DNA of 64,000 bases from Candidatus Aminicenantes bacterium (lineage in GTDB: Bacteria > Acidobacteriota > Aminicenantia > UBA2199). A program made the translations under genes and the position numbers. Under the pieces are notes generated by a model, which saw only the letters and a list, made by a program, of their open reading frames with translations, made no database searches and was not told where the DNA came from. Where the stretch lies: contig JAOZUQ010000003.1 of the NCBI GenBank assembly GCA_029938635.1, forward strand, positions 34,786 through 98,785, read 5' to 3'. Shown here in pieces: positions 1,955 through 48,539 of the stretch. The number at the start of each line of letters is the position of its first letter. The stretch's first letter is position 1.

Positions 1955-2011
1955 TTTTCAACATCTGACCAACCCGGCTGACAATCTAATGATTTAAATA
2001 TTCACTAAATA

Positions 2012-4222: not shown

Positions 4223-4345
4223 TTTTCGATTATTGCATAACTACTTTTCTTCTACAACTATAAGCAGGATATTTATTTCAGTTAAAATAAAAATGGACAA
4301 ATAGTTTAATAAATTTCATTATATTCATGAAATGAGTTTAATGAA

Positions 4346-5968: not shown

Positions 5969-5998
5969 CCTTGCTATGTCAGGTGCGAGTTGCTCTTC

Positions 5999-6574
5999 TC
6001 AGAGCAACTCTTCCATTATTTTTTTAGATTTCTCTAAAACTTCTTTATGCAGACTTCCTTCGTGTGAATCCATTGTTACGACAACGGGAAAATCTTCTAC
6101 TTCAATTACCCAGAAAGCCTCGGGTGAACCGAACTCTTCGAGTTTAAAAACCTTTTTTACTTTTTTTACAGAATTTGCGATCAGAGTACCTGCACCACCG
6201 ATTGCATGAAAATAGACTGCCCCGCATTTTTTCAATCCCTCTAATGTTTTTGCACCCATTCCACCTTTACCAATCACTCCTCTTACATTATATTCACATA
6301 CTACAGTTGACTGATATGGTTCCTCTCTGGCTGATGTTGTAGGCCCGGCAGAAACAAAACTCCATTCTCCGCTTTCATTCTGTTTTACAACGGGGCCGCA
6401 ATGGTAAATTACAGACTCTTTCAGGTATTCTCTGATAAATTCAGGTTTCTCATCCACCATTAGTTTATGTGCTTCATCCCTGGCAGTTACTATAGTGCCG
6501 GAGAGTAATACTTCGTCTCCAACCTTTAAGCTTCTGATATCTTCTTCCGAGATTGGAATTTGTAATTTAATCAT
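5999..6574 (-). CDS. Class I (Fe-S) fumarate hydratase / tartrate dehydratase family, beta subunit
   Basis: Family-typical N-terminus MIKLQIPISEEDIRSLKVGDEVLLSGTIVTARD plus GPTTS and IGKGGM motifs. Start moved to the ATG at 6574, which has GGGGAGG 6 nt upstream. The track start at 6589 lies inside that SD. Confidence 0.9.
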   Translation of the reverse strand: MIKLQIPISEEDIRSLKVGDEVLLSGTIVTARDEAHKLMVDEKPEFIREYLKESVIYHCGPVVKQNESGEWSFVSAGPTTSAREEPYQSTVVCEYNVRGVIGKGGMGAKTLEGLKKCGAVYFHAIGGAGTLIANSVKKVKKVFKLEEFGSPEAFWVIEVEDFPVVVTMDSHEGSLHKEVLEKSKKIMEELL

Positions 6575-7433
6575 AAATAACCTCCCCATTTTTCAAGACC
6601 ATAGTTTTCCTTCTAAAGGCCCAGCACATATATGAGATAGCCACGAAAAATGTAGCAGGATGCCTGGCTTGTGATGAAATGAATACATCCAGAACAGTAG
6701 TTTTACCACCGAATCCCATTGGACCGATCTGAAGTTTGTTTAAAGTTTCATTCAGGTCTTTCTCCAATTTGGCGATTTCAGGATCAGCACTCCGCTCACC
6801 TATCTTCCTGAAAAATTGAACTTTGGACAAAGCATATGAAGTAATTCTGTCACCGCCAATACCGATTCCAAGAGTTCCGGGAGCACAACCCAGTCCCTGT
6901 GCATTTACTACTGCATCAATTACTACTTTCCTGACCCCTGCAAGGTCTCTTCCGGCTTTCAAAGGCGGAAAGGGAAGTTTATATTGTGTGCCGACATTCT
7001 CACTTCCTCCACCTTTAAGCATAACCCTGATTCTGACCTCATCTTTATCCCATTGATGGAAATGTATATATGGAGCGTTCACTCCAATATTATTTCCCGA
7101 GTTTTTGGATGTCACCGGATCTACCGCATTGGGCCTCAGGTATTGTTTTTTTGTTGCTTCAATTGCTGCTCCTTCTATTGCTTCGGAATATTTCTTCTCT
7201 GATTCTCCTTCAGGGAAATCAATATAAAATAATAATGATCCCGTATCCTGACAAATTGGAGTTGACTGCTCTTTAGCCATTTTGACATTTTCAAGAATAG
7301 TCTTAAAAACCCCTCTTGCAGGAGTACCTTCATCTTCATTTTCATAAGCTTCAGAAAGTGACTTGACCACATCTTCAGAAAGATCGGTGGAAGCTCTCCT
7401 GATAAGCTCGAGGATTGAATCCTTTAAGTCCAT
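6567..7433 (-). CDS. Class I (Fe-S) fumarate hydratase / tartrate dehydratase family, alpha subunit
   Basis: 288 aa with CQDTG, MLKGGGSEN and GIGIGG motifs typical of the Fe-S hydro-lyase alpha region. Overlaps the beta subunit start by 8 nt. Confidence 0.9.
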   Translation of the reverse strand: MDLKDSILELIRRASTDLSEDVVKSLSEAYENEDEGTPARGVFKTILENVKMAKEQSTPICQDTGSLLFYIDFPEGESEKKYSEAIEGAAIEATKKQYLRPNAVDPVTSKNSGNNIGVNAPYIHFHQWDKDEVRIRVMLKGGGSENVGTQYKLPFPPLKAGRDLAGVRKVVIDAVVNAQGLGCAPGTLGIGIGGDRITSYALSKVQFFRKIGERSADPEIAKLEKDLNETLNKLQIGPMGFGGKTTVLDVFISSQARHPATFFVAISYMCWAFRRKTMVLKNGEVIYD

Positions 7434-7548
7434 ATTTTTCTCCTTTATTTCCTTATATTAAAAAAATATTTTATGCCAGCGATTTTAGTTTGTAAAGGAG
7501 GATTTGTTAAAAAATTAAATTAATATATATAACCGTTTTAAGTATATT

Positions 7549-8460
7549 TCACTGATTAAACACCGGGAAAAATGAGATCACAGGAAGGTGGTCAGAAATG
7601 TTTTCAAAATAATCTGAGATCCGGCTGTCAATTAAGAGAGTCGTAGTTGTACCCCCGGTATAATCATCAAAAAGTGACCTTGAAATCAGGATATGATCGA
7701 TCAGTGAGCCCCATGAAGGATACGAGGAATAAATGGGGTCATCAGCTATCTCCAGGGTAAGGAACTTATAGGATTCGGGATCATTCAGCAGAAGGGTAAA
7801 ACAATTCTCAGAAAGACCGTCAGTCAATTCATCATTCCAGTCACCGGCAATAATATAATCCTTCTCATCATCTACTTTTATTCTTGAATCCATATACTCC
7901 TTTAAAAGTCTTACAGCACCCCTCCTCCTGTCAAGTTCCTCTGCTCCCTGAAAAGCTTTCAGATGAATAACGATGAGGTAGAACTCATTTGAAAACTCTC
8001 CTTTCACAAGCCTGAGCTTTACTATTAATGGAGGCCTTGGGAATTCATATGCTCTTTCTTCATAGATCTGATCTTTGGATAGAACGGTGATCATATTTTT
8101 TCTGTAAATGATCCCTGTCTTCTGATAGCTGGTCCCATATGTATCATCTGAATATAAACCATCATATTCACTCAGATCATTTATGAGATTATCAAAGAAC
8201 CACGTGTCTGCTATTTCCTGAACTGCATAGAGATCCACATCCAGATTTTCAATGATCAGTTTATATGATTCAACCGATTTGTTCCCGTTATCAGGAAAAT
8301 TATGCATATTCCAGGTAACAAGTTCAAATGAATCTTCAACTCCAACCTTCTCGAGTGAGTGAGTTATTTCATCTTCATTATCGATTTCTGCAGGAGTTTT
8401 ACATCCGGAACTCAATAATAAGAGAGAGATAAGTAAAAGAAAAATTGAAGTTTTAAGCAT
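7549..8460 (-). CDS. Endonuclease/exonuclease/phosphatase (EEP) family lipoprotein
   Basis: 303 aa with signal peptide plus LLSSGC lipobox. Motifs TWNMHNF, QEI, GDWND and the terminal SDHLPV signature. Confidence 0.8.
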   Translation of the reverse strand: MLKTSIFLLLISLLLLSSGCKTPAEIDNEDEITHSLEKVGVEDSFELVTWNMHNFPDNGNKSVESYKLIIENLDVDLYAVQEIADTWFFDNLINDLSEYDGLYSDDTYGTSYQKTGIIYRKNMITVLSKDQIYEERAYEFPRPPLIVKLRLVKGEFSNEFYLIVIHLKAFQGAEELDRRRGAVRLLKEYMDSRIKVDDEKDYIIAGDWNDELTDGLSENCFTLLLNDPESYKFLTLEIADDPIYSSYPSWGSLIDHILISRSLFDDYTGGTTTTLLIDSRISDYFENISDHLPVISFFPVFNQ

Positions 8461-8491
8461 CTGATATTTTTACCTCAACTGAGATGAATAA

Positions 8492-9181
8492 TCAAATTTT
8501 GTTTGAACTCTTCAGTATTATCCTCATACCTTCTTTCACACTCAGTGGAGACAATTCCGTGTCAGCTATGAACTCAGAGACAGAATCCGGAGATGTTTTT
8601 GAATATTCCCTTAACGCCCACCCTATAGCTTTCCGAATAAAAAACTCTTCCCTTTCAGATAACTCCTTTATAAGTGATAACAACAATTTCTCATCTGTTC
8701 CATTCCTATATTTCAATTGAAAAAGGAGAGAAGTCCTCTGCAGCCACATATTTCCCGAACTCATCCATTTTCCGGTAATTTCAGGGATGATATTTCTACT
8801 CCCTGCCAGAACTGGGCCAACCAGATTGGAAGCAATGGCATCGACAGTATCCCACCACGATTTGTTAACGATCAGAAACTCGAATAATGGAATATGATCT
8901 TTATCAAGTTGCCTGATTTTCTTTTCCAGCAGAAAGATCGTGAAATACTGGTACTCCCTTTGCGGCATCTCCCACAATTCTTTTACAATATCTTCTATCT
9001 CCCCGGTTTCAGGTAGTCCGTTGGCCTTGAAAAATTCCTTATAGATCTCTTTTCTCGGAACTGAAGTTATTCCGAAGAACTCAAACTTCTCCCTCATATA
9101 TTTTTTCATCGGAACAGCCCTGATCGGATCAGCATGCCTGAGATACAATTCCTCTAATTTGTTCAGATAATTGTTCTTCAT
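8492..9181 (-). CDS. DNA alkylation repair protein (AlkD-like HEAT-repeat glycosylase family)
   Basis: 229 aa with FFGI, WWDTVD and IRKAIGWALREY motifs typical of the DNA_alkylation family. Confidence 0.75.
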   Translation of the reverse strand: MKNNYLNKLEELYLRHADPIRAVPMKKYMREKFEFFGITSVPRKEIYKEFFKANGLPETGEIEDIVKELWEMPQREYQYFTIFLLEKKIRQLDKDHIPLFEFLIVNKSWWDTVDAIASNLVGPVLAGSRNIIPEITGKWMSSGNMWLQRTSLLFQLKYRNGTDEKLLLSLIKELSEREEFFIRKAIGWALREYSKTSPDSVSEFIADTELSPLSVKEGMRIILKSSNKI

Positions 9182-35309: not shown

Positions 35310-36398
35310 ATGAAAAAAGTTGATCTGAGAAAACTATCTTCGGTCTCATCTGCAGAACGGGCATTCCTTACAATATACATATCTGAAAAAAGTACGAGAG
35401 AAGATGTAGAGAAAGCACTGAACATAAAAAAGAAAGTTTTAAAAAAGGGGACAGACGATTTTGAATACTTCTCTGAAAATTACAGGATAATCATGGATGA
35501 TATTGAAAAAAATCCTGTAAAAAAGGGAAACCATGCCATTTTTTGTTGTTGGGCACTCGATTATTATGAAAGAATAGCTCTCAAAATGGCTGTTGAAGAT
35601 CTGATCCGGATAGATTCATCACCCTATATTCTTCCTTTAGCTCAATTTGAAGATGAATATGAGAATTATCTTGTAATTGCAGCTTCCAATGAGAAGACTA
35701 AGATTTATATGGTTGCAGGTCAGAAGACAATAAAAGAAGATGATATTAAAGGAAATATTAAGAACCATGTAAAAGTCGGGGGCTGGTCACAACAGAGGTA
35801 TGAACGGAGACGGGATAAAGAATTTTCAGTGTATGTCAAAGACATTGTGGAAAAGATTCGGGACCTGGCCAAAGGGATCGACTTCCGCCGGATAGTCATT
35901 GTAGGCTCAAAAGAAACGATAAGGGAATTAGGAGATGTGCTGCCTGATGATCTGAAAAAACTTGTAGTGGGTGAAAAAGCTCTTGATCTGAAGAAAGATG
36001 AGAAATCTGTGAATGAAGAGATCTTCAGACTCCTTTGGGAAGAAGAGAGGAGGACAGAGAGAGAACTCTGGAACAGGACAAAGAGCCTCTACCTGAAGGG
36101 AGAATTGGGAGTGACAGGAACTTATGATGTCCTCTATTTTGCAAAAAGAGGAAGGGTCGATAGTGTTATTGTTAATAAGAATGCTGACCTTAAAGGTATC
36201 AGATGCAGGGATTGTGAAGAGTTATCAGATAGTAAAACTGACAAATGTCCCGAGTGCGGATCCTCCTCCATATTCGAGATAGATCTTGTCAATGAGATAA
36301 CAGAATTGTTGAAACTCTCCGGGGGTGAGATCGAATTTGCCGAAAATATTGATGAATTAAAAGATGCTGGAGATATTGCTGCTATATTAAGATATTAA
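35310..36398 (+). CDS. eRF1/Pelota-like (bacterial aeRF1-type) protein with an inserted zinc ribbon; GGW replaces GGQ
   Basis: 362 aa. HVKVGGWSQQRYERRR aligns with the eRF1 motif GRGGQSALRFARLR. The C-terminal GDIAAILRY matches the eRF1/Pelota terminal GGIGAILRY. A CxxC...CxxC ribbon (CRDCEE...CPECG) lies in domain 3. Confidence 0.7.
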   Translation: MKKVDLRKLSSVSSAERAFLTIYISEKSTREDVEKALNIKKKVLKKGTDDFEYFSENYRIIMDDIEKNPVKKGNHAIFCCWALDYYERIALKMAVEDLIRIDSSPYILPLAQFEDEYENYLVIAASNEKTKIYMVAGQKTIKEDDIKGNIKNHVKVGGWSQQRYERRRDKEFSVYVKDIVEKIRDLAKGIDFRRIVIVGSKETIRELGDVLPDDLKKLVVGEKALDLKKDEKSVNEEIFRLLWEEERRTERELWNRTKSLYLKGELGVTGTYDVLYFAKRGRVDSVIVNKNADLKGIRCRDCEELSDSKTDKCPECGSSSIFEIDLVNEITELLKLSGGEIEFAENIDELKDAGDIAAILRY

Positions 36399-36697
36399 GA
36401 TTCAGCTAAAAATTTTTTTACAAACTCAACATATTCTTTTGGAGGGTCTTTTAATTTTATTCCAATATCTGAAAGTTCAGGATACTTTTTATTCCAGCCT
36501 TCCCAGGCAATTTCTCCTGTTAGAATAAATTCCGTTTTATCCAGTATCAATGTTATTTTTATCTCTTCTTCAACAGGTTTTTGGGATATGGAAACACCTA
36601 AACCGTCTTCAGAAAGATCTATTAGAAATCCTTCAATTCCATTTACTATCAAAAAGGATTTCTGCCGTATTCTATTGAAGTTTCTCCTTTCCATCAT
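36395..36697 (-). CDS. Single-domain PilZ protein (c-di-GMP receptor-like)
   Basis: 100 aa with RRNFNR (RxxxR) and DLSEDGLGV (D/NxSxxG), the PilZ signatures. Confidence 0.75.
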   Translation of the reverse strand: MMERRNFNRIRQKSFLIVNGIEGFLIDLSEDGLGVSISQKPVEEEIKITLILDKTEFILTGEIAWEGWNKKYPELSDIGIKLKDPPKEYVEFVKKFLAES

Positions 36698-36784: not shown

Positions 36785-37909
36785 TCATTTACCAGTTTTA
36801 TTTTCAATTCCTGATTTTCTTGCATGTGCTGTCTTACAAAATGAATCTACCCATTTATCGAAAGAACCGGTTTCAAGATAAGTGTGGGCGGGACACCACA
36901 GGCAGAGATTGATAATATTGCATGAGTGGCATTTCGCATGAAATTCGGGATTCTCGGATCTGGTATCAAGCACATTCGGCACAAAATTTTCCCATGCGTC
37001 TTTTAATGATCCTTTTTTCAGATCATAGATGAAATCCGGATGCCATAATGATGAGCACAATCGGAAGATCCCATCCGGGCTGACCGTAAAACTGCTCTGA
37101 CCCGCCCCGCAATGGAAAAGGTGATCACAATTATGATGTCCATCACCTTCAAAAATAAATTCATCACAATTCTCTTTGAGACTGGAAGACCTCTCAGGAT
37201 CATCCTGTTCAAGTTTAACTATCTCTTCAGGTGCCAGCCTTTCACTTTTAATTTCTTCATTCCTGGATTCATCTCTGTCATATCTCAAATGGAGCATAGG
37301 GTCGAACTTGTAATAATCTTTTGTCCTCTCTTTGCAAAAAGTTTCAATCTTTTTAAATTCATTTAGATTTGACCTTAACGCCATTGTTTTGAGGCGTACT
37401 TTGATACCATTATCCAGGAGCAGGTTAAGGCCATTCATAAACTTCCTGAAAGAACCCGGGACTCTGGATACTTTTTCATATGTTTCTTCAGTGACCCCGT
37501 AAACAGTTATCTCAATTTCTCTGGGGGGGTATTTCCTGAACAATTCTATATGGGTTTCATTAATGAGGCAGGCAGAAGTAAAAACAGATACAAGAAGGCC
37601 CTTCTTTTTAAGCATCATATAAATATCCTGAAAATCTTCTCTCAATAGAGGTTCACCCCCGGAAATAAGGCACCAGAGGGCGCCAAGCTCAATAGCCTGA
37701 TCGGTAATACTTTCCAGTTCTTTCAATGAAAGCTCTTTGGATTTTGCTTCTTTATCACCGGCAGGAAGATTTATATAACAATGACGACAATTGTTTGAGC
37801 ATCTGGAAGTGATCTCCAGGTCGAATGAAGCCAGTATCCTCTTTTTATTTAATTTTTTCCATAAAGGGAAATCTTTGAGATCAGACAATTCTGAATATTC
37901 AGTTCCCAT
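36785..37909 (-). CDS. Radical SAM / SPASM-domain peptide-modifying enzyme (third of three)
   Basis: 374 aa with CxxxCxxC in ITSRCSNNCRHC, plus GGEPLL. Cys-rich C-terminal region reads CGAGQSSFTVSPDGIFRLC...CHSCNIINLCLWCPAH. Confidence 0.85.
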   Translation of the reverse strand: MGTEYSELSDLKDFPLWKKLNKKRILASFDLEITSRCSNNCRHCYINLPAGDKEAKSKELSLKELESITDQAIELGALWCLISGGEPLLREDFQDIYMMLKKKGLLVSVFTSACLINETHIELFRKYPPREIEITVYGVTEETYEKVSRVPGSFRKFMNGLNLLLDNGIKVRLKTMALRSNLNEFKKIETFCKERTKDYYKFDPMLHLRYDRDESRNEEIKSERLAPEEIVKLEQDDPERSSSLKENCDEFIFEGDGHHNCDHLFHCGAGQSSFTVSPDGIFRLCSSLWHPDFIYDLKKGSLKDAWENFVPNVLDTRSENPEFHAKCHSCNIINLCLWCPAHTYLETGSFDKWVDSFCKTAHARKSGIENKTGK

Positions 37910-38405
37910 TTAAATCCTTTTTATTTCTGAACAACTTAATAATTTTCACAGCTTTTCTTCTTAGATTCATTATGAAAGGATAAAATTTTAATAGAATTGC
38001 ATGAATAAAAAAATTATCCACCATACCTGCACAAAATTTAGTCCTCCCGTTCCTTTCAATTCCTGTGACTACACCATATATCATATTTCCTGTAACCCAG
38101 CCATCAGATTCATCAGAGTTATCTCCTCTCATGAGATAGTTACTGCTCCTCTTTTCTATTATACGATGAACTACTATTTGTGAATTTTTTTCTTTTCTAA
38201 AAAGGACTATATCTCCCCTTATCAGATCTCTGTCAGGCAAAGGAGATACGGTTATGACATCATTATGTCTTATTGAAGGGGTCATGCTGTATCCTTTTGC
38301 AGTGAACCTGAGAGATCCCCCTTTCAAATGAACATCCTTCATCAGTTTCAATAAATTCTCACCTGATAAAGAAAGTTCAGCCGATTCCGGAATAACTTCC
38401 ATCAA
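37899..38405 (-). CDS. S26B-like (SipW/Sec11-type signal peptidase fold) protease with no N-terminal TM anchor; candidate leader peptidase
   Basis: 168 aa with the Ser motif KGYSMTPS, the His motif VVHRII and an RGDNSDESD box. No N-terminal hydrophobic segment. Overlaps the next gene by 11 nt. Confidence 0.65.
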   Translation of the reverse strand: MMEVIPESAELSLSGENLLKLMKDVHLKGGSLRFTAKGYSMTPSIRHNDVITVSPLPDRDLIRGDIVLFRKEKNSQIVVHRIIEKRSSNYLMRGDNSDESDGWVTGNMIYGVVTGIERNGRTKFCAGMVDNFFIHAILLKFYPFIMNLRRKAVKIIKLFRNKKDLNGN

Positions 38406-38415
38406 TTTTCTCCTG

Positions 38416-38715
38416 TCAAACGGCCTCTATGATCTGCCTTGATAACAATTCGTTGAGAAAACCTGTAACATCATCTGTTATTCCGCTTGCTTCACTATCA
38501 TATTTCTTTTCTAGTAGATCAATTATCTCCTGGACACTATGTGTCCCGTCAAGATAGCCCCAGACTGCTTTGCCTGTTTCATTGAGGGAAAAGAGATCAT
38601 CTTCTGCATCACCAATTCCTGCAGTAAGAGGAACTATTATGATCTCACCCTCAATTTCTCTTGATACCACATTTTCTGTCAAACGGTATTTTAAATTTTT
38701 ATCTATCTCTGTCAT
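38416..38715 (-). CDS. PqqD-family protein (RiPP recognition element)
   Basis: 99 aa. The pattern ...GEIIIVPL....LFSLNETGKAVWGYLDGTHSVQEIIDLLEKKYD....DVTGFLNELLSRQII matches PqqD/RRE proteins. Overlaps the upstream rSAM gene by 17 nt. Confidence 0.85.
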   Translation of the reverse strand: MTEIDKNLKYRLTENVVSREIEGEIIIVPLTAGIGDAEDDLFSLNETGKAVWGYLDGTHSVQEIIDLLEKKYDSEASGITDDVTGFLNELLSRQIIEAV

Positions 38716-39874
38716 CGCCTTTTTCCTCCAGTTTTTTAATCCTTTCCTTCCAATCTGTTATTTCCCATCCCTTTTCATCTCCTTTTAATAATCCGATATC
38801 TTTTGCCTCTTTATGAGCAACTTTGCACAAATATTCCACAGGGGTATCGAATGTACCATTCTCACTCCATGCACGGGATGGGCATTGCAGACATAAGCCT
38901 TTCAGGAAACAGTTGCTGCATCTATTAAGATATTCCGGATTTGAAGCTTTTACTTTTAATTTTTCAGGAAAAAATTTAAAAATAGCTTCTTTGATCGTCC
39001 CGTCTTTCAGGTCATATGCAAATTCATCCGCCTTGAGGGTCAGACATGGATGAATAAATCCATAAGCATCGACACTACCTGATTGTCCTGCTCCACAGGA
39101 AAACAAATCAGGCCCGGACGGCCCGATGAACTTCTCTAAAAAATCTAATCTGGATCTTGTCAATTCTTTCTTCTCTGCATTAAGATCAGAATTGATTCTA
39201 AGAGAAGCAATTATTTTGTTTTTTGAATCCGAATCCCTCCTCTCCCTGAATTCAAAACTACCGGAATAAGATGGAGACTGATCCATCCACGGCAATGTAG
39301 ATGCCCAGGATTCGAATTCCTCTTTTTCCGATAAATTATCCGGAAGATGTATTCCCTTTACAATAAATGGAATATTAGATTTTAAGAGGAGGCCAACACC
39401 TGACCTGAATTCTTTATAAGATCCGGGGACCCGGGATACTTTCTCATATGATGACCTGCTCATCCCGTACACACTTACTTCCATCTTTTCAAGAGGTGGG
39501 ATCTTTGACAGCAGTTTTGCTATCTCTGAAGTTATTTTTCTGGCATTAGTAAATATTATCACCTTTATCCCCAGCTTCCTGGTAAATAAATAGAGCTCTG
39601 AAAAATCTTTTCTCAAAAGAGGTTCTCCACCGGTAAATCTGATTGACAACACTCCGAGATCTGCGGCCTCACTAATTATTTTTTTCCATTCAGATGTATT
39701 AAGTTCTCTTTTTTGTTCCGGAGAATTTTCAGGAATATTTATACTGCAATGGACACAATTATTATCACACCTTTCGGTGAGTTCAATATCTATATGCCCG
39801 AGCCTGTTTGAACCGGTCGTCATGAAACCATCTTCATGAGGTTTTATTTTTTCTACAAAATCTGAACCATTCAT
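38699..39874 (-). CDS. Radical SAM / SPASM-domain peptide-modifying enzyme (second of three)
   Basis: 391 aa with LTERCDNNCVHC (CxxxCxxC) and GGEPLL. C-terminal region reads CGAGQSGSVDAYGFIHPC...CSNCFLKGLCLQCPSRAW. ATGA overlap with the upstream gene. Confidence 0.85.
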   Translation of the reverse strand: MNGSDFVEKIKPHEDGFMTTGSNRLGHIDIELTERCDNNCVHCSINIPENSPEQKRELNTSEWKKIISEAADLGVLSIRFTGGEPLLRKDFSELYLFTRKLGIKVIIFTNARKITSEIAKLLSKIPPLEKMEVSVYGMSRSSYEKVSRVPGSYKEFRSGVGLLLKSNIPFIVKGIHLPDNLSEKEEFESWASTLPWMDQSPSYSGSFEFRERRDSDSKNKIIASLRINSDLNAEKKELTRSRLDFLEKFIGPSGPDLFSCGAGQSGSVDAYGFIHPCLTLKADEFAYDLKDGTIKEAIFKFFPEKLKVKASNPEYLNRCSNCFLKGLCLQCPSRAWSENGTFDTPVEYLCKVAHKEAKDIGLLKGDEKGWEITDWKERIKKLEEKGDDRDR

Positions 39875-41832
39875 TTTTTTTTTAATTTAATAACTTTCGT
39901 AAAGTCCTTTACTACCCTGGCGATCTCTCCACTCTTATCAAATTTAATGATATAGAACGGAACTGCATTTACCAACCGGTCCAGTGTTGCAAGTGTTTTA
40001 TCCCACCAGTCCGAAGTGACCAGCGGCTGCATGATCCGGGGCATGATCCTTGTGATGATCTCCTGGGTGTCCTCTAACGTTATGATCTCATTCACATTCG
40101 ATTTTTCAAGAAACAATATTGCTTTGAGGGGCACTTCTCCGTTTGAGACCTCATGGATATCCCCATGGCTCCATGTACCATGGACCCGGAATCCATCCGG
40201 CCATTTCCGGATGATATTGTATTCATCACAGAGGAGCGTGCCCTCTTCTTCAAGAAGGGTAGAAATAGTAGACTTTCCGGCTGTCGATTTGCCGGAAAAA
40301 ACAAGTCCCGTTTGGTCAATAACCATGGCCGAGGAATGGAGTGTCAGAGCCTCCCGGTCGGCAAAGATCCGGCTCAGCAGCAGTTGGTCCGAAGGGAATA
40401 GGGAAAGTGCATGCTGTGGGGATCCGAAGATCAGATCGTGACTTTTGAGATAAATTTCAGCCAGGGTGTGATCATCATTAAATATTACAATACGCCTTGG
40501 GGGATCATTTTCTCTGTTTTCAAGTATCTCCCTGTACAACCACGATTTGTTCTTCCGGTATATTGCCCAGGGGATCTTCCTGTATATCTCTTCTCCCGAA
40601 TCTTCAATAGACAATTCGGGGATTTCAAAGTGATACCGGATCAATACAATGTCATCGCCCGGTTCTTCCATCCTGAATTGTTCAAATTTCGGGAGGAAGG
40701 AATCTTTTTCAAACGGAAGGTCGGAATCCACCTGAATGGTCACGCCACCGATCTCATAATATCGTCTGTGGTTTTTTTCCCACTCTTTTTTATATTCCAC
40801 TTTTTTGTCTGTAATTTCACATAAATATTTTAAAGGTAAATCATACTTCCCATGTTCCAGCCATGAATAGACCGGGCACCAATTACACAATTCTTTATTA
40901 TCACAGGATCCGCAATGCTCCCAATACTCCTCTCCCCCCCTGATTTTCTCTCCGATAGAGGGGATAAATTTTTCCCACCCTTCTTCAAATGTCCCCTTTA
41001 TAATGTCATATCTAAGTTCAGGATCTTTGACAAAGATACAATTGGCCATTTTCCCGTAAGGATCGATATGGAATGAGTTCCTTGTGGAGACACATTTATG
41101 AAGAAGTCTGTCATCTGGATTTGTTTTAAGATTATTCTGATCACTCTCAAGCAATTTGTGTTTTGAATTATATCTGGGATTGGGGGGATCAAGCGCAACC
41201 ACCTGTTCCGGTGTCAGCCGCTGATCTTCGATCTCCCGGTTCATAGATGCTGATCGGCAGGCGGAATAAAAAAGCCAGGATGATCCGATCCGCCAGGAGG
41301 AGCTCAGGGATTTTGCCAGTTTGGTCATTTCATCCAGCTGATGGAAACTGTCTTTCATCGGTACGACCTGAACAGTAAATCCCGCTCCCGCCTCTTTTAA
41401 AAAAGAGAATCCTTTCATGGCTTTCTCAAATGATCCTGGTTCCCGGGTGATGTGGTCATGGACCGCTGCATCCGCCCCGTAAAGGGCAATCATTTTACTC
41501 CCCTTCCGTTTCATCAATTCTGCAATTTCCGGAGTGATTTTAGTCCCGTTGGTATTGATCGTATATGTTAAGAACTTTGAAGTGAGGTAATCGAATATCT
41601 CAGTAAAATCAGGATGGAGCATGGGTTCCCCACCGGAGACCACCCACTCACGTGTTCCCATGGCCCTGGCCTGATCAAAAATCATTTTCCACTGATCAAA
41701 TCTCAGCTCACTCTTTTTTGCTGTTGAATCCTCACCCAGCCAGAGCCAGCAATGTCTGCAGGTGTTGTTGCAGCGGTAAGTCAGGTCAATGCTTCCCTCC
41801 AGGGGAAGTCTCGGGATCTTGTTATTACTCAT
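39871..41832 (-). CDS. Fusion protein: N-terminal radical SAM/SPASM enzyme plus C-terminal HPr-kinase-like P-loop domain
   Basis: 653 aa with C21/C25/C28 in LTYRCNNTCRHC. SPASM-type Cys at 247, 265, 307, 310, 316, 319 and 338. The C-terminal 300 aa or so contain LHSSAMVIDQTGLVFSGKSTAGKSTISTLLEEEGTLLCDEYNII. The P-loop maps to nt 40267-40293 and matches the HprK-like pattern LHA.av...G.a.lf.G.SG.GKSTl...L...G..l.sDd. Confidence 0.85.
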   Translation of the reverse strand: MSNNKIPRLPLEGSIDLTYRCNNTCRHCWLWLGEDSTAKKSELRFDQWKMIFDQARAMGTREWVVSGGEPMLHPDFTEIFDYLTSKFLTYTINTNGTKITPEIAELMKRKGSKMIALYGADAAVHDHITREPGSFEKAMKGFSFLKEAGAGFTVQVVPMKDSFHQLDEMTKLAKSLSSSWRIGSSWLFYSACRSASMNREIEDQRLTPEQVVALDPPNPRYNSKHKLLESDQNNLKTNPDDRLLHKCVSTRNSFHIDPYGKMANCIFVKDPELRYDIIKGTFEEGWEKFIPSIGEKIRGGEEYWEHCGSCDNKELCNWCPVYSWLEHGKYDLPLKYLCEITDKKVEYKKEWEKNHRRYYEIGGVTIQVDSDLPFEKDSFLPKFEQFRMEEPGDDIVLIRYHFEIPELSIEDSGEEIYRKIPWAIYRKNKSWLYREILENRENDPPRRIVIFNDDHTLAEIYLKSHDLIFGSPQHALSLFPSDQLLLSRIFADREALTLHSSAMVIDQTGLVFSGKSTAGKSTISTLLEEEGTLLCDEYNIIRKWPDGFRVHGTWSHGDIHEVSNGEVPLKAILFLEKSNVNEIITLEDTQEIITRIMPRIMQPLVTSDWWDKTLATLDRLVNAVPFYIIKFDKSGEIARVVKDFTKVIKLKKK

Positions 41833-41900
41833 TTTAACGGCAGATCTTAATTTGTTTTTAACAATTAATCAAGTTCAGCAAATCCGGATCTATATTTAAA

Positions 41901-42677
41901 TTATACCCTTTTCTTTAATAAAGCGCAGGCATTGTTGGAATTTTCAGGAAAGATAAAATCGATCACCTGAAAACCGGCTTCATCGAATTCAGAGATCAGA
42001 TTTTCCTTGTCATAGAATGCATGAAGGAATTCAAGGTTATCTTTGTAGATATCTCCTTTTTCATATGTTGTATTTCCGAATGTGATTCGGGATAAAAACT
42101 TCCCCAGTTTCCACCTCAAATTTCCCCCTGCAGCTGATGGATTCCAGTAGAAAAAGCAGGCGATAAAACCATCCGATTTCAACATCTCACCAGACCATTT
42201 CAGGTTTTTTATACGTTTCTTCCTTCCGGGAATCGATGAATAGATGGAGCAGGAGTACCATATAACATCAAAACTATCAGGATCGACATTAATATTGGCT
42301 ATATCTGAATGAATTCCCTTGATCTCAATTCCGGCCTCTTTTCCATTTTCAATAGCTTTATCCAAAAGTTCCTTCACAAAATCGACACCGGTGATATTAA
42401 ACCCGGCCTTACCCAGGACAAGCGCTTCCCGGCCTCCCCCGATTCCGAGCAGGAGTAGATTCCCTTTTTTTTTATTTAATAATTCAAAGACCTCTTTTTC
42501 TCCCGGGAAAAACCCCTGATTTACAAAATTTTTATCCCCCCAGAATTCTGCAGAATTTGTTGTATTGTAGGATTGCTTACTAATTCTTTTTAGTTGAGAA
42601 GGTCTGAGAAGAAAAACCGGTGAGTTCTGAAGAAACTTTCCTAATTTATTTATAAAAAAGGTAATTGGAATTCTCAA
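41901..42677 (-). CDS. Class I SAM-dependent methyltransferase
   Basis: 258 aa with motif I LLLGIGGGREALVLGKAGFNITGVDF. Apparent TTG start; there is no in-frame ATG near the N-terminus. Confidence 0.8.
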   Translation of the reverse strand: MRIPITFFINKLGKFLQNSPVFLLRPSQLKRISKQSYNTTNSAEFWGDKNFVNQGFFPGEKEVFELLNKKKGNLLLLGIGGGREALVLGKAGFNITGVDFVKELLDKAIENGKEAGIEIKGIHSDIANINVDPDSFDVIWYSCSIYSSIPGRKKRIKNLKWSGEMLKSDGFIACFFYWNPSAAGGNLRWKLGKFLSRITFGNTTYEKGDIYKDNLEFLHAFYDKENLISEFDEAGFQVIDFIFPENSNNACALLKKRV

Positions 42678-42707
42678 TGATCATTCCGTTCTATTCAGAG
42701 AAAAATA

Positions 42708-42911
42708 TTAACTTTGACCCCTGGCGTTGCAGGCAGCACAATTTGCAGTATCGACCGCACCGCATTCCTGAATAGTATTTCCCGGATCAAGTGGAATTCC
42801 TGCACCATTCTGTTTGCACCGGGTAAGAATAAATTCCTCGGGAGTCAGGCGGCTGAGTATTTTTAATTTCGGGGTTGTCCACTTTACTCGTTTCATATTT
42901 GTAATATACAT
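42708..42911 (-). CDS. Candidate RiPP precursor peptide (67 aa, or 62 aa from the ATG at 42896)
   Basis: First gene of the operon. Sequence is MYITNMKRVKWTTPKLKILSRLTPEEFILTRCKQNGAGIPLDPGNTIQECGAVDTANCAACNARGQS. The N-terminal half is basic and Leu-rich with a WxxPxL motif. The C-terminal half is G/A/N/D/T-rich with Cys at 32, 50, 58 and 61 and a terminal Ser. Confidence 0.6.
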   Translation of the reverse strand: MYITNMKRVKWTTPKLKILSRLTPEEFILTRCKQNGAGIPLDPGNTIQECGAVDTANCAACNARGQS

Positions 42912-42931
42912 AATATAACCTTTGATGTCAA
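42903..42931 (-). promoter_or_regulatory. Possible sigma70-like promoter of the RiPP operon
   Basis: Reverse strand reads TTGACA (42931-42926), 17 nt, TATATT (42908-42903). If used, transcription would start about at the second ATG (42896). An alternative, TTCAAA-17 nt-AATAAT, lies further upstream, so this is uncertain. Confidence 0.3.
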
Positions 42932-45644: not shown

Positions 45645-48539
45645 TTAATTGGAAACAATTACCGGATCACTCTCTTTTCCTCTATAGGAAACAGCAGTGA
45701 TCTTATAAGTGAAGTACTGATCCTCTTCAAGGCCTCTGTCATCATATCCCATTACAGTCGGATCAAGTTCAGCGATCAGTTCATATGTATCATCTCCATT
45801 CCCTTTAACCTTCCTGTATATTCTGTAATTGAGCAGTTCGACCTGATTTTCAGGATTTTCCATCCAGGTGATCCTGTTGACATATTCATTAACAAAAATA
45901 AGGTTATTGACAACTCTTTCAAGATTAACTCCTGCAGGAGGTAATACCGGTATGAATTTTGCAGTGATCCATTGAGAGTAGGTCTTGGGGCCATCCCAGA
46001 TCGTGTCGTTGATTGCAAGGCTTATCCTGTACATCCCTTCTATTTCAGGATCAACATTAAGGGTTGCTTTATCATTATCTATTATGAATTCAGGATTAGC
46101 TCCCTCCGGAATATCCTCCAGAACCCAGAGATAAGTGATAGGAAAATCTTCAGGATCATATGATTTAGAGCCGTCAAAGTTAACACTTTTATCTGCGTTG
46201 TCAAGAATAACCTCTATTCTATCCTGGGTCAGAACTGCAATGGCATCTCTGTTAAGAGGGAGAACATTCAGTTTCCCTGATCCAAATGCATTTTTCCCCA
46301 TTGAACGTGCAGCGTTGTCCTTTATTGCCCAATTCGAAAATGATCCACGGATCTGATTTACATTTCTTTCCGGAAATTTTTGAAGTACCAGCGCAACTGC
46401 TCCGGTTGTAATAGGAGCAGACATTGATGTCCCTGACATCTGCCCGTGCCTTCCGTCAGGATCAAGATTTGAATTACTCCAACCTGCATCTTTAGACGCA
46501 GCAGATAAAATGATCTGCCCCGGTGCAGCAATATCAGGTTTCACTCTTCTGTCCCTTGAAGGGCCGGGTGAGGAAAAGTCTGCAATAGTCCCGACCCATG
46601 GTTTCTTTGCATAGGTCCAGGTGCTACCATCACTTCCATCCCATTTATCTCTGGTCGACCACGCCCCGACAGAGATCTCGTACTTGGATGCCCCTTCATC
46701 AATTATATAATTTGAATGGGAAAAATTCCCTGTAAAATATGAGTTAATGTCATTAACATAATAGCCACCAGCGTATATAAACTCTGAGCACCAGACATCA
46801 TAGTTCACGGAACCGCCACCAATGGCCTCAACAATAATGGTCCAGTTACCCAGGGCCGGTTGATATGGCCCCCAATATGGCCAGTAAAGGTCCAGAGATC
46901 CGTAATTGTCTCCATTCGAGGCCGGAGGATTGTCCATGTACCAATCGATCCACCCGTCTCCCACTACTCCGTCCCATGTACCGCCATCGGTCCCGTGAAG
47001 GAACGGCCCGATGACAAAACCGTTGGGTGAAGTAAAGGTTATCTGAATAGGAGCATCCGACCAGTAACCAAAAGATAACCAGGGGAATACACTATTGTCA
47101 GGCCCCCCGAAGAGATTATATGGCCACACCGTTGTGTAATCGATTACCGTATATGTGTGAGATTGGGCTCCACTGCTCTGGTGTCCTTCCATATGGTATG
47201 ATCCGTTCATATATGGATAAGACCCTCCGGTAAGATCAGTATAGGTATTCCAATGCCCTTCATTCCCTGCTGACTTTACAGGGATATGTCCACCACCATA
47301 TGATACATTCCAGCCGGCGATCTCCTGTGCTTCACTGCTTGTACCGTCCGCGGGAAAATCCTGGGGCCACCAAGACATATAATGCATCGGATATCCGGGT
47401 CCGTATGACATATTTACTGAACAGGGCATCCCTAGCTGACTCGACAACTCATAGATAAAAAGGATACCATTATTATCGAGCCCTTTCACGAAAATCATAT
47501 CCGAATTTGGGGCAATACCGGTATATTTTCCTGTTGCAAATCCGTTCCCGGCAGCACTGCCGGATACATGGGTTCCATGCCCGTTTGTATCAACTTCAGT
47601 GCAGCTCCCTCCATCGATCTCTGCTTTGGTCCAGACAGTACCATATGAAAGGCCTGAAAGTACCCCTCCGAAAACATCGGCAGGAGTTCTTCCTGGTGTT
47701 GTAATTTCCGTATCCCAGATATATCGTATCCGTGTCTCTCCTGTATCAGGATCAACAAAATCTTCATGGGTCCAGTCAATGCCGGAATCAATAACTCCTA
47801 CGATCACCCCTTTGCCCGTATAACCTTTTGTATATTTGGGCCCGGATTTCAACCTTATCCTGGAAGCCCTTACTGCATTCGAAGCAAGGTTGTTCTGGGA
47901 AACTTTTTTCAAAACCGGAGTAATTCTAATCACCTGGCTTAGTTTTGCAATTTTTTCAATTTCAGTTGAAGCAACTTCAGCAGAAACAATTGTCTTTCCT
48001 TCGAACTCAGATGTTGCCCTTATTTTCAGATTGAAATTATTCAGGACCTGAATCCCGCCTGTCATATCAATATTACATTCGATAACGTCATAAGGTGGAT
48101 TCCCCCATCTCTCCTGAAGCTCATCCCTGATAAGAGCACTGATAAAAAAAGGTCTCTTGAATTTAGATTCAACTTCTCTTTCACTCAGGATATCCCCGGT
48201 TGAGAGATTTACTTTTCCCCTTTTTGGAGGATAAGACAAAATTTCCTTTGACAGGGTTGAACCGGGAGGCTGTGCTGCGACCTTTGCCCCCTTGATAATA
48301 TTCTGTAGTTTTTTTGAACCATACTTCAAAAGACTTTCAGTAGTCAGCCTTTTTTCATTCCTATAGATATTTAAAATCTCTTTCAAAGGCCCGATCAGTT
48401 TATGGTGATGTAAAGATTTAATATTACCCGGATCATCTCCTCTCTGATCAGTCCCATTCAAGTAATTTCCACTTCCAGAAAAGGAAATAATTAACATTCC
48501 TGTAAATATATACAGGAATACCTTTGAATAGTTCTTCAT
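45645..48539 (-). CDS. Secreted subtilisin-like serine protease (S8) with C-terminal Ig/FN3-like domains
   Basis: 964 aa with a signal peptide. Catalytic triad motifs are VGVIDSGIDWTHEDF (Asp), HGTHVSGSAAG (His) and SGTSMSAPITTGAVAL (Ser). Confidence 0.9.
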   Translation of the reverse strand: MKNYSKVFLYIFTGMLIISFSGSGNYLNGTDQRGDDPGNIKSLHHHKLIGPLKEILNIYRNEKRLTTESLLKYGSKKLQNIIKGAKVAAQPPGSTLSKEILSYPPKRGKVNLSTGDILSEREVESKFKRPFFISALIRDELQERWGNPPYDVIECNIDMTGGIQVLNNFNLKIRATSEFEGKTIVSAEVASTEIEKIAKLSQVIRITPVLKKVSQNNLASNAVRASRIRLKSGPKYTKGYTGKGVIVGVIDSGIDWTHEDFVDPDTGETRIRYIWDTEITTPGRTPADVFGGVLSGLSYGTVWTKAEIDGGSCTEVDTNGHGTHVSGSAAGNGFATGKYTGIAPNSDMIFVKGLDNNGILFIYELSSQLGMPCSVNMSYGPGYPMHYMSWWPQDFPADGTSSEAQEIAGWNVSYGGGHIPVKSAGNEGHWNTYTDLTGGSYPYMNGSYHMEGHQSSGAQSHTYTVIDYTTVWPYNLFGGPDNSVFPWLSFGYWSDAPIQITFTSPNGFVIGPFLHGTDGGTWDGVVGDGWIDWYMDNPPASNGDNYGSLDLYWPYWGPYQPALGNWTIIVEAIGGGSVNYDVWCSEFIYAGGYYVNDINSYFTGNFSHSNYIIDEGASKYEISVGAWSTRDKWDGSDGSTWTYAKKPWVGTIADFSSPGPSRDRRVKPDIAAPGQIILSAASKDAGWSNSNLDPDGRHGQMSGTSMSAPITTGAVALVLQKFPERNVNQIRGSFSNWAIKDNAARSMGKNAFGSGKLNVLPLNRDAIAVLTQDRIEVILDNADKSVNFDGSKSYDPEDFPITYLWVLEDIPEGANPEFIIDNDKATLNVDPEIEGMYRISLAINDTIWDGPKTYSQWITAKFIPVLPPAGVNLERVVNNLIFVNEYVNRITWMENPENQVELLNYRIYRKVKGNGDDTYELIAELDPTVMGYDDRGLEEDQYFTYKITAVSYRGKESDPVIVSN

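Follow-up and report, generated by a model that had tools for sequence, protein, structure and literature searches.

A seven-gene operon on the minus strand (36785-42911) was identified in a Candidatus Aminicenantes bacterium and is one copy of a widespread but undescribed pathway in anaerobic bacteria and methanogens. The window analysed was a 64,000 nucleotide stretch of contig JAOZUQ010000003.1 (assembly GCA_029938635.1). The operon is a real and uncharacterised RiPP locus, and no paper on it was found. It was inferred to make a small cysteine-bridged peptide using three radical SAM (rSAM) enzymes, a fused kinase domain that probably phosphorylates the conserved last Ser/Thr of the peptide, and a signal-peptidase-like protease. 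This chemistry is inferred.

Organization of the operon

The following features were predicted, all on the minus strand.
42903-42931 (-), promoter-like site TTGACA-17 nt-TATATT (11 of 12 matches), just upstream of and overlapping the first ATG of the precursor ORF.
42708-42911 (-), precursor peptide gene, 67 aa from the first ATG or 62 aa (gene call P0132) from the second ATG at 42896. The leader is about residues 1-33 (42813-42911), ending in the conserved Cys-Lys. The core is residues 34-67 (42711-42812) and ends NCAACNARGQS.
41901-42677 (-), class I SAM-dependent methyltransferase of 258 aa.
40798-41832 (-), rSAM/SPASM half of the fusion protein (residues 1-345), with CxxxCxxC at C21/C25/C28 and seven auxiliary Cys (247, 265, 307, 310, 316, 319, 338).
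39871-40797 (-), ScmC/HprK-like P-loop kinase half of the fusion protein (residues 346-653), with H499, Walker A GKST with K520, and D536-E537.
38699-39874 (-), second rSAM/SPASM enzyme of 391 aa.
38416-38715 (-), PqqD-family protein of 99 aa, the presumed leader-binding recognition element.
37899-38405 (-), cytoplasmic S26B (Sec11/SipW)-type serine peptidase homologue of 168 aa, the presumed leader peptidase.
36785-37909 (-), third rSAM/SPASM enzyme of 374 aa, with three further conserved Cys.
36395-36697 (-), PilZ-domain gene 88 bp downstream of the operon, possibly co-transcribed.

The fusion gene spans 39871-41832. Three overlaps were present, at 37899-37909, 38699-38715 and as ATGA at 39871-39874, where the start of the second rSAM gene overlaps the stop of the fusion gene. 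The preliminary description extended the locus to 42931, but this coordinate is the -35 hexamer of the promoter-like site and not coding sequence. The promoter-like site was identified by consensus scan only and the total number of such sites in the region was not above the shuffled expectation. The PilZ gene scored 22.8 bits against a cut-off of 22.5 and was found only in the Aminicenantes-like subclade. It follows the third rSAM in the window and in related loci L003 and L005. In locus L008 a PilZ gene lies upstream of the precursor, and that contig ends before the third rSAM.

Radical_SAM scored 70-76 bits for all three rSAM proteins. The motifs RCNNTCRHC, RCDNNCVHC, RCSNNCRHC and GGEP(M/L)L were present in the translations. 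SPASM models were only borderline, with TIGR04085 scoring 26.4 against 27 for the fusion protein and PF13186 scoring 18.5 against 21.5 for the third rSAM. The three rSAM Cys and the seven-Cys SPASM pattern were nevertheless 94-100% conserved in 64-87 orthologues of each enzyme, and all ten Cys of the fusion protein were 100% conserved in 87 orthologues. PqqD (PF05402) scored 57.2 bits against 23.4, although the protein fell below the cut-off of every named PqqD subfamily. Methyltransf_25 and Methyltransf_11 scored 37-38 bits, above cut-off, with no named NCBIfam methyltransferase family reached. No Pfam or NCBIfam model matched the small ORF and no curated NCBIfam model reached its cut-off in the operon.

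The peptidase scored 32.5 bits against 23.3 for Peptidase_S24 and 49.7 against 51.85 for the archaeal-type signal peptidase model TIGR02228. Its best solved relatives were human SEC11A and SEC11C, with alignment over GxSMxP, HR and GDN. The Ser, His and Asp motifs (GxSMxP, HR and GD...D) were at least 90% conserved in 49 orthologues. Unlike Sec11 and SipW it has no transmembrane segment, is encoded inside a cytoplasmic peptide-maturation operon, and is sometimes fused to a GNAT acetyltransferase.

Distribution of the cassette

Relatives of the fusion protein were found in 247 species genomes, spanning Aminicenantes, Omnitrophota, Planctomycetota, Chloroflexota, Desulfobacterota, Chlorobiaceae, Methanothrix and Methanomicrobiales. 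They almost always sit beside the same partners. The arrangement is far more than chance as the same gene set recurs in about 80 independent loci. Of 39 loci with at least 5-6 kb on each side 38 have the second rSAM, 36 the third, 38 a PqqD and 36 the peptidase, while 33 have all four. The three rSAMs form separate orthologous groups, with 450-550 bits to the orthologue compared to 150-250 to paralogues.

The domain assignments of the preliminary description were borne out, as was its proposal that the small ORF is a precursor. It had however presented the third rSAM, the fused kinase domain, the protease and the precursor as additions of this locus to the SynChlorMet (SCM) cassette. These are not special to this locus and define a whole family. 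Only the methyltransferase is an accessory, present in about 13 of 85 loci. In other genomes the accessory genes are a GNAT acetyltransferase (often fused to the peptidase), an NTP_transf_5 (PF14907) nucleotidyltransferase in about 27 of 84 loci, and an ABC exporter in about 28 loci. No exporter, NTP_transf_5 gene or immunity gene was present near the operon in the window.

The precursor family

A family HMM found 144 copies of the precursor in 70 of 85 loci, with 1 to 11 copies per locus. The family was defined from 198 non-redundant sequences. The leader is near-invariant (W-x2-P-x-L-x-V-L-x-R-x2-PEE-x-VL-x2-CK), with W, P, L, R, EE, L and CK 95-100% conserved. The core is hypervariable, usually with four Cys. 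The last Cys lies exactly six residues before the C-terminus in 181 of 198 sequences, and all 181 end in Ser (166) or Thr (15). In an independent metagenome set 119 of 120 precursors ended in Ser or Thr and 108 of 118 had four Cys.

The ScmC/HprK-like domain

The HprK-like assignment was weak by local HMMs, with ScmC (TIGR04249) scoring 34 bits against 125 and Hpr_kinase_C giving E = 0.19. It was confirmed by the precomputed Pfam PF27840 'ScmC' hit, which covers the C-terminal half of the fusion protein, and by predicted fold. The AlphaFold model had a pLDDT of 90.3. Foldseek gave 52 PDB matches at E <= 0.001, and of the 50 best all but one (rank 48) were PEP carboxykinases or HprK/P, the best at E = 2.7e-07. 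TM-scores were modest, at 0.3-0.47 on the query and 0.5-0.57 on the HprK C-terminal domains. The pattern H-x20-K(GKST)-x15-D-D/E aligned to the H, GKS and DD of Coxiella HprK. H499, K520 and D536 were invariant in 32 homologues, while position 537 is Asp in most and Glu in the window protein.

Comparison with known systems

The closest curated relative is the SCM cassette (ScmC TIGR04249, ScmD TIGR04248, ScmE TIGR04250, ScmF TIGR04251), which is itself uncharacterised. Both have a PqqD-like protein, several PqqE-like rSAM/SPASM enzymes and an HprK-related domain, which here is of ScmC type by Pfam PF27840 but not by TIGR04249, and both are found in the same kinds of anaerobes. In the present cassette ScmC is fused to an rSAM and there are three rSAM orthologous groups instead of two. 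The three rSAMs scored 58-93 bits against the ScmE and ScmF cut-off of 400, and the PqqD protein scored 28.6 against 100 for ScmD. In related locus L010 an SCM pair scoring 396 and 346 bits lies immediately upstream of a separate cassette of the window type in the same genome. The two types also sit side by side as separate units in locus L030. The SCM neighbor in L010 also has an S26-like peptidase and a Cys-rich small ORF ending in Ser, but the precursor family defined here is specific to the present cassette.

The HprK-type lasso-peptide tailoring kinases (PadeK of paeninodin, ThcoK, SyanK, PsmK) share the HprK-like P-loop fold and a His-Lys-Asp-Asp-type tetrad. PadeK, ThcoK and PsmK phosphorylate the 'extremely conserved' C-terminal Ser of the linear precursor, and PsmN, a nucleotidyltransferase homologue, then decorates the phosphate (PMC9266682). 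A PqqD-like leader-binding protein and frequent nucleotidyltransferase and ABC exporter partners are also common to both, and PsmN may likewise belong to PF14907. In the present cassette the scaffold enzymes are three rSAM/SPASM proteins and the kinase is fused to one of them. No Asn-synthetase-like cyclase or transglutaminase-like (B2) leader protease was found in the operon or in the related loci examined.

Sactipeptide and ranthipeptide maturation (AlbA, SkfB, CteB/SCIFF, PapB) also uses rSAM enzymes with a SPASM-type domain acting on a leader-bearing, Cys-containing peptide through a PqqD-like recognition element. Here there are three dedicated paralogous enzymes rather than one and the recognition element is discrete rather than fused. 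A kinase and a Sec11-like peptidase are not part of those systems. AlbA (53-63 bits against 850), SkfB (41.7 against 300), PapB (44.9 against 340) and StsB models were all far below cut-off. None of the three rSAMs could be tied to a reaction type. Their solved relatives (SkfB thioether, PqqE C-C, SuiB Lys-Trp, BlsE decarboxylase) are all distant, at E = 1e-12 or weaker.

Proposed pathway and alternatives

The pathway considered most likely, with moderate confidence, is as follows. The PqqD protein binds the conserved leader and presents the peptide to the enzymes. The three rSAM/SPASM enzymes each install a different radical-mediated cross-link, most likely thioethers from the conserved Cys residues (four per precursor, or three if the Cys of the leader Cys-Lys is removed). 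The ScmC/HprK-like domain uses ATP to phosphorylate the hydroxyl of the C-terminal Ser/Thr, as HprK-type kinases do on lasso-peptide precursors. The preliminary description had also predicted phosphorylation, and the conserved terminal Ser/Thr makes this much stronger, although the exact Cys-x5-Ser spacing is not explained by simple terminal phosphorylation. The peptidase removes the leader, and the cut may fall after the small-x-small motif [A/T/S]-[A/T/G]-Cys just before the conserved Lys. Fusion of the peptidase to GNAT in methanogen loci fits a cleave-then-acetylate sequence. In this locus the methyltransferase would add a methyl group. The cleavage site and the order of steps are guesses. 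The hypervariable, often multi-copy core points to a secreted or diversifying bioactive peptide and not a cofactor.

An unlikely but possible alternative is that phosphorylation is an activation step. Phosphate would be eliminated from the C-terminal Ser/Thr to give dehydroalanine or dehydrobutyrine, and the Cys six residues upstream would add to it, forming a C-terminal (methyl)lanthionine-like ring, with the rSAMs acting on the other Cys. The fixed spacing calls for a structural link between the two residues, Ser/Thr interchange is typical of lanthionine donors, and kinase-then-elimination is the established route in class III/IV lanthipeptides. However, no lyase or cyclase homologue was detectable in the cassette, and NTP_transf_5 genes in about a third of loci suggest that the phosphate is kept and decorated, as in pseudomycoidin.

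Almost as tentatively, one rSAM/SPASM enzyme may join the Cys at -6 directly to the C-terminal residue, with the terminal carboxylate as recognition handle, to form a terminal thioether macrocycle. The kinase domain would then have a separate or regulatory role. This would account for the fixed Cys-to-terminus distance, and PapB, an rSAM/SPASM ranthipeptide maturase, can couple an internal Cys to the C-terminal residue of peptides (PMC12373016). That activity was shown on peptides ending in D- or beta-amino acids and not on natural L-Ser termini. Neither the requirement for Ser/Thr at the last residue nor the fusion of an HprK-type domain with an intact catalytic tetrad to an rSAM is explained.

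It is also doubtful that the ScmC domain is not a peptide kinase but an ATP-driven scaffold or chaperone, or a phosphorylase, that helps the rSAM enzymes handle the peptide, with the terminal Ser only a recognition or export signal. In its favor, sequence similarity to HprK is weak (E = 0.03-0.2 against PDB), and no ScmC protein was found to be characterised in the literature that could be searched. Against this, the His, P-loop Lys and Asp are invariant across the 32 bacterial and archaeal homologues with HprK-like spacing, and the only characterised RiPP enzymes with this motif phosphorylate exactly such a C-terminal Ser.

A peptide-derived redox cofactor like PQQ or mycofactocin is very unlikely. 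The discrete PqqD with rSAM/SPASM enzymes, conserved C-terminal chemistry recalling MftA, the lack of an exporter in the window and the mycofactocin maturase model, among the better weak hits for the fusion protein (97.6 bits), are suggestive. The core is however hypervariable apart from the Cys and terminal Ser/Thr, precursors are often multi-copy, exporters accompany the cassette elsewhere, and all cofactor models were far below cut-off (PqqE 67-71 bits against 381, MftC 64-98 against 265). That the locus is simply a copy of the SCM cassette or of a known sactipeptide/ranthipeptide family is the least likely reading, despite weak ScmC, ScmD, ScmE and ScmF hits and the Pfam label, given the scores and the side-by-side cassettes in L010.

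Organization of the operon

Seven ORFs were found head to tail on the minus strand between 36785 and 42911, in the following order:

42708-42911 (minus strand), small ORF (precursor), 67 aa
41901-42677 (minus strand), methyltransferase, 258 aa
39871-41832 (minus strand), rSAM/SPASM-ScmC fusion, 653 aa
38699-39874 (minus strand), second rSAM, 391 aa
38416-38715 (minus strand), PqqD, 99 aa
37899-38405 (minus strand), peptidase, 168 aa
36785-37909 (minus strand), third rSAM, 374 aa

The preliminary description of this region as a seven-gene radical-SAM RiPP-like operon was confirmed. Gaps of 30 and 68 nt are present at the 5' end, followed by an ATGA overlap, a 17-nt overlap, a 10-nt gap and an 11-nt overlap. 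None of the seven proteins has a hydrophobic segment long enough to cross a membrane. The stretch from 40001 to 42000 holding the fusion gene has a G+C content of 44.5%, compared to about 37% for its neighbors, including the other two rSAM genes. Another high-GC stretch (45.6%) lies at 46001-48000, inside a 964-aa ORF at 45645-48539.

A promoter-like site, TTGACA-17-TATATT (11 of 12 matches), is located at 42931-42903. Promoter and terminator scans gave no more sites than shuffled sequence, and this single match is reported only as a lead. The -10 hexamer of this site overlaps the first ATG of the precursor ORF and the second ATG (42896) lies 6 nt after it. The second ATG gives the 62-aa product used in a public gene call (P0132). 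The real product may be 62 aa, read from a leaderless or nearly leaderless mRNA. The YITNM extension is kept in two related loci, L005 and L008, which could reflect conservation of the promoter DNA rather than of the peptide.

The flanking genes encode an HD-domain protein and a baeRF-family protein. A close relative from an Aminicenantes MAG (locus L003) has the same flanks. A PilZ-domain gene (36395-36697, minus strand) follows the third rSAM on the same strand in the window, L003 and L005, while in L008 a PilZ gene lies upstream of the precursor instead. All are in the Aminicenantes-like subclade. The 3' end of the PilZ gene overlaps by 4 nt the end of a convergent baeRF family 10 (release-factor-like) gene (35310-36398, plus strand). 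In L003 (6057-7929), the closest named Aminicenantes relative, the methyltransferase is reduced to a 94-aa C-terminal fragment and the precursor gene lies inverted next to the HD-domain gene. This points to a local rearrangement that removed the accessory enzyme but kept the core cassette.

Domain content

Radical_SAM was strongly predicted in all three large proteins (70-76 bits). PqqD scored 57 bits against a cut-off of 23 and Peptidase_S24 scored 32.5 against 23.3. Methyltransf_25 and Methyltransf_11 were above cut-off. Against NCBIfam release 20 (June 2026) no protein reached the curated cut-off of any named family. The best rSAM hits were heme b synthase, NirJ2, the mycofactocin maturase, ScmE/ScmF and PqqE, all at 60-110 bits against cut-offs of 265-650. 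Pfam and NCBIfam scans of the 67-aa peptide at E values up to 10 found nothing.

The SPASM HMMs were borderline. However, each rSAM group keeps CxxxCxxC plus seven C-terminal Cys in the pattern C-x17-C ... C-x2-C-x5-C-x2-C ... C, and these are 94-100% conserved over 64-87 orthologues. Sequence searches of the PDB could not assign a reaction type to any of the three rSAMs, as only distant SkfB, PqqE, BlsE, SuiB and MoaA hits appeared. The peptidase motifs GxSMxP, HR and GD...D are at least 90% conserved, and its best solved relatives are SEC11A and SEC11C.

The predicted kinase domain of the fusion protein

Residues 346-653 of the fusion protein hit ScmC (TIGR04249) at only 34 bits and HprK models at E values around 1e-3. 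Public precomputed Pfam annotation assigns PF27840 'ScmC'. An AlphaFold model built from 32 homologues has a mean pLDDT of 90.3. Foldseek comparison of the model to the PDB gave 52 matches at E <= 0.001. Of the 50 best, all but one (rank 48, a Euglena respiratory supercomplex chain) are ATP-dependent PEP carboxykinases or HprK/P, which share one P-loop kinase fold. H499, the Walker A GKST with K520, and D536-E537 align with the H, GKS and DD of Coxiella HprK. The H, K and D are invariant in 32 bacterial and archaeal homologues and the fourth position is Asp in most. The domain also exists as a stand-alone protein of about 300 aa. Among 1.84 billion cluster representatives there were 139 hits at E <= 1e-30, 819 at <= 1e-10 and 3,566 at <= 1e-3.

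Distribution and conservation of the cassette

The fusion protein has more than 1,790 homologues, typically 50% identical over the full length, across phyla and across the two prokaryotic domains. A scan of one genome per species found relatives in 247 genomes. All of the 80 loci returned are metagenome-assembled or uncultured-isolate assemblies. The taxa represented are Aminicenantes/Acidobacteriota, Omnitrophota, Planctomycetota, Anaerolineae and Dehalococcoidia, Desulfobacterota lineages, Chlorobiaceae, Bacteroidales, Victivallales, WOR-1, WOR-3 and Margulisbacteria, and Methanotrichaceae and Methanomicrobiales. The cassette is common in uncultivated anaerobes and in methanogens, yet it has no curated family and no named precursor, and no description of it was found in the literature searched. 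The RRE-Finder paper mentions neither HPr kinases nor SPASM.

ORFs were called in 84 loci and matched to the proteins of the window. Of 39 loci with at least 5-6 kb on each side, 38 have the second rSAM, 36 the third, 38 a PqqD and 36 the peptidase. Thirty-three have all four. Gene order varies but the set does not. Each rSAM scored 450-550 bits to its orthologue and 150-250 to the two paralogues. The trio is therefore old, and each member is kept for its own job.

The methyltransferase is present in only about 13 of 85 loci. A GNAT acetyltransferase recurs in about 15 loci and is fused to the peptidase in Methanothrix and relatives. The Sec11-like peptidase is fused to, or sits next to, a GNAT acetyltransferase in methanogen loci and some bacterial loci (L013:7786-8784, L009, L015, L060, L072, L082; L001:5767-6318; L085:16314-16817). 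Other long peptidase forms (for example in locus L063, 361 aa) have an extra region with no Pfam match. A fused ABC exporter is found in about 28 loci. A PF14907 NTP_transf_5 nucleotidyltransferase is found in about 27 of 84 loci and lies adjacent to the exporter in 13 (examples of loci with these two genes next to the cassette are L087:14082-17159, L013, L015, L045, L064, L069, L072 and L083). The window has neither the GNAT acetyltransferase, the exporter nor the nucleotidyltransferase near the operon. Acylphosphatase genes were seen near three loci, but only four loci have one and the copy in the window is 11 kb away, so this was regarded as coincidence.

The precursor peptide family

The small ORF of the window alone found 88 relatives in the loci retrieved. 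A single-sequence phmmer search with this divergent precursor at E = 1e-5 under-counted precursors, and a family HMM was used instead. The family HMM found 144 copies in 70 of 85 loci, ranging from 1 to 11 per locus. Most of the 15 loci without a hit are short or cut contigs. Some loci carry many divergent precursor copies around one enzyme set (L068:5293-15833, L021:11931-15732 and L034 are multi-copy examples), which recalls the combinatorial precursor arrays of other RiPP families. A profile search of the metagenome protein collection gave 187 further proteins. Wherever a source gives a name it is 'hypothetical protein', and none carries a Pfam domain.

Conserved leader residues in 198 non-redundant precursor sequences, numbered from the invariant Trp as position 0
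Position 0: W, 198 of 198
Position 3: P, 198 of 198
Position 5: L, 193 of 198
Position 8: L, 190 of 198
Position 10: R, 192 of 198
Positions 14-15: E-E, 175 and 196 of 198
Position 18: L, 195 of 198
Positions 21-22: C-K, 196 and 193 of 198

The region following the leader is Gly/Ser-rich and hypervariable, apart from three more Cys. About 90% of precursors have exactly four Cys in total. The last two Cys are spaced CxxC or CxxxC. The last Cys lies exactly six residues before the end in 181 of 198 sequences, and in all 181 the final residue is Ser (166) or Thr (15). In the window peptide these residues are C32-K33, C50, C58, C61 and S67.

Proposed maturation pathway

The gene set is conserved, as is the leader, with a variable core. 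The rSAM and auxiliary cluster ligands are intact, and the kinase fold with its catalytic tetrad and the Ser/His/Asp set of the peptidase are present. The interpretation in the preliminary description, in which one peptide was predicted to receive several radical-mediated modifications plus methylation, phosphorylation and proteolysis, was supported, but all of the chemistry is inferred. In the most likely pathway PqqD binds the leader and the three rSAM/SPASM enzymes each make a distinct cross-link at the conserved Cys, most likely a thioether. The fused kinase domain phosphorylates the terminal Ser/Thr, the soluble Sec11-like peptidase removes the leader and the methyltransferase adds a methyl group.

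The phosphorylation step rests on a close precedent. The lasso-peptide kinases PadeK, ThcoK, SyanK and PsmK carry a His-Lys-Asp-Asp motif and phosphorylate the hydroxyl of the 'extremely conserved' C-terminal Ser of the linear precursor. A nucleotidyltransferase homologue, PsmN, then decorates the phosphate (PMC9266682). These kinases are probably homologous to HPr kinase (Zhu et al. 2016). The frequent NTP_transf_5 partner of the cassette mirrors this pairing. The GNAT-peptidase fusions fit acetylation of the new N-terminus after cleavage. The residues before the invariant Lys are [A/T/S]-[A/T/G]-Cys, which fits the small-x-small rule of type I signal peptidases. A cut there would leave three Cys in the core for three rSAM enzymes, although this is only tentatively suggested.

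Simple terminal phosphorylation does not explain why the last Cys is exactly six residues from the end. Two alternatives could account for this, and neither can be decided by sequence. Phosphorylation may be followed by elimination and Cys addition, giving a lanthionine-like ring. Alternatively an rSAM enzyme may make a thioether to the terminal residue, for which PapB provides a partial precedent (PMC12373016).

It is possible, although doubtful, that this is a new RiPP class shared by Bacteria and methanogenic Archaea. In this reading an rSAM enzyme and an HprK-like kinase are fused so that radical cross-linking and phosphorylation act together on a fixed C-terminal Cys-x5-Ser/Thr module. 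The module would give either a phospho-ester-bearing (and in some lineages nucleotidylated or glycosylated) thioether-caged peptide or a phosphorylation-activated C-terminal ring. The three paralogous rSAM/SPASM enzymes would each forge one defined bridge, and a cytoplasmic relative of the eukaryotic/archaeal signal peptidase would be recruited as the leader peptidase.

The precursor signature of an invariant leader, four Cys and a Cys-x5-Ser/Thr C-terminus turns an uncharacterized rSAM cassette into a set of directly testable predictions. If confirmed, the pathway would give the ScmC/HprK-related domain family (3,566 representative clusters at E <= 0.001) its first function and would show a second, independent use of C-terminal serine phosphorylation in peptide natural products. 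It would also add three new rSAM/SPASM activities, document a soluble Sec11-type peptidase working as a RiPP leader peptidase and indicate what the neighboring SCM cassette does.

Comparison with known systems

The cassette is classed as a real, widespread and uncharacterized RiPP-type pathway with a now well-defined precursor signature. Maturation of RiPPs by rSAM/SPASM enzymes plus a recognition element is already known, and the pathway was not considered a categorically new system. Sactipeptide, ranthipeptide, PQQ, mycofactocin, GeoRSP, ACGX and lasso models did not reach their cut-offs. The nearest curated system is the uncharacterized SCM cassette, as noted in the preliminary description. 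The proteins of the window miss all four SCM equivalog models by a wide margin.

In locus L010 (Aminicenantes UBA6072) a near-canonical SCM set (1013-8536) lies immediately upstream of a separate window-type cassette. It comprises an ABC exporter, ScmE at 396 bits with an N-terminal PqqD-like extension, a 200-aa double-PqqD protein, ScmF at 346 bits and a 197-aa HprK-like protein. It also has its own Cys-rich small ORF ending in FVIQS, its own S26-like peptidase and a further PqqD-like gene. Locus L030 (2667-9410) carries homologues of the same upstream genes in the same order. The two are related but distinct systems. The SCM cassette may also be a RiPP pathway with a Ser-terminated precursor. 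A short tandem repeat is located at 3141-3410 in L010, just upstream of the ScmE-like gene, and reads as repeated HVPRSMF-like heptads in several frames on both strands.
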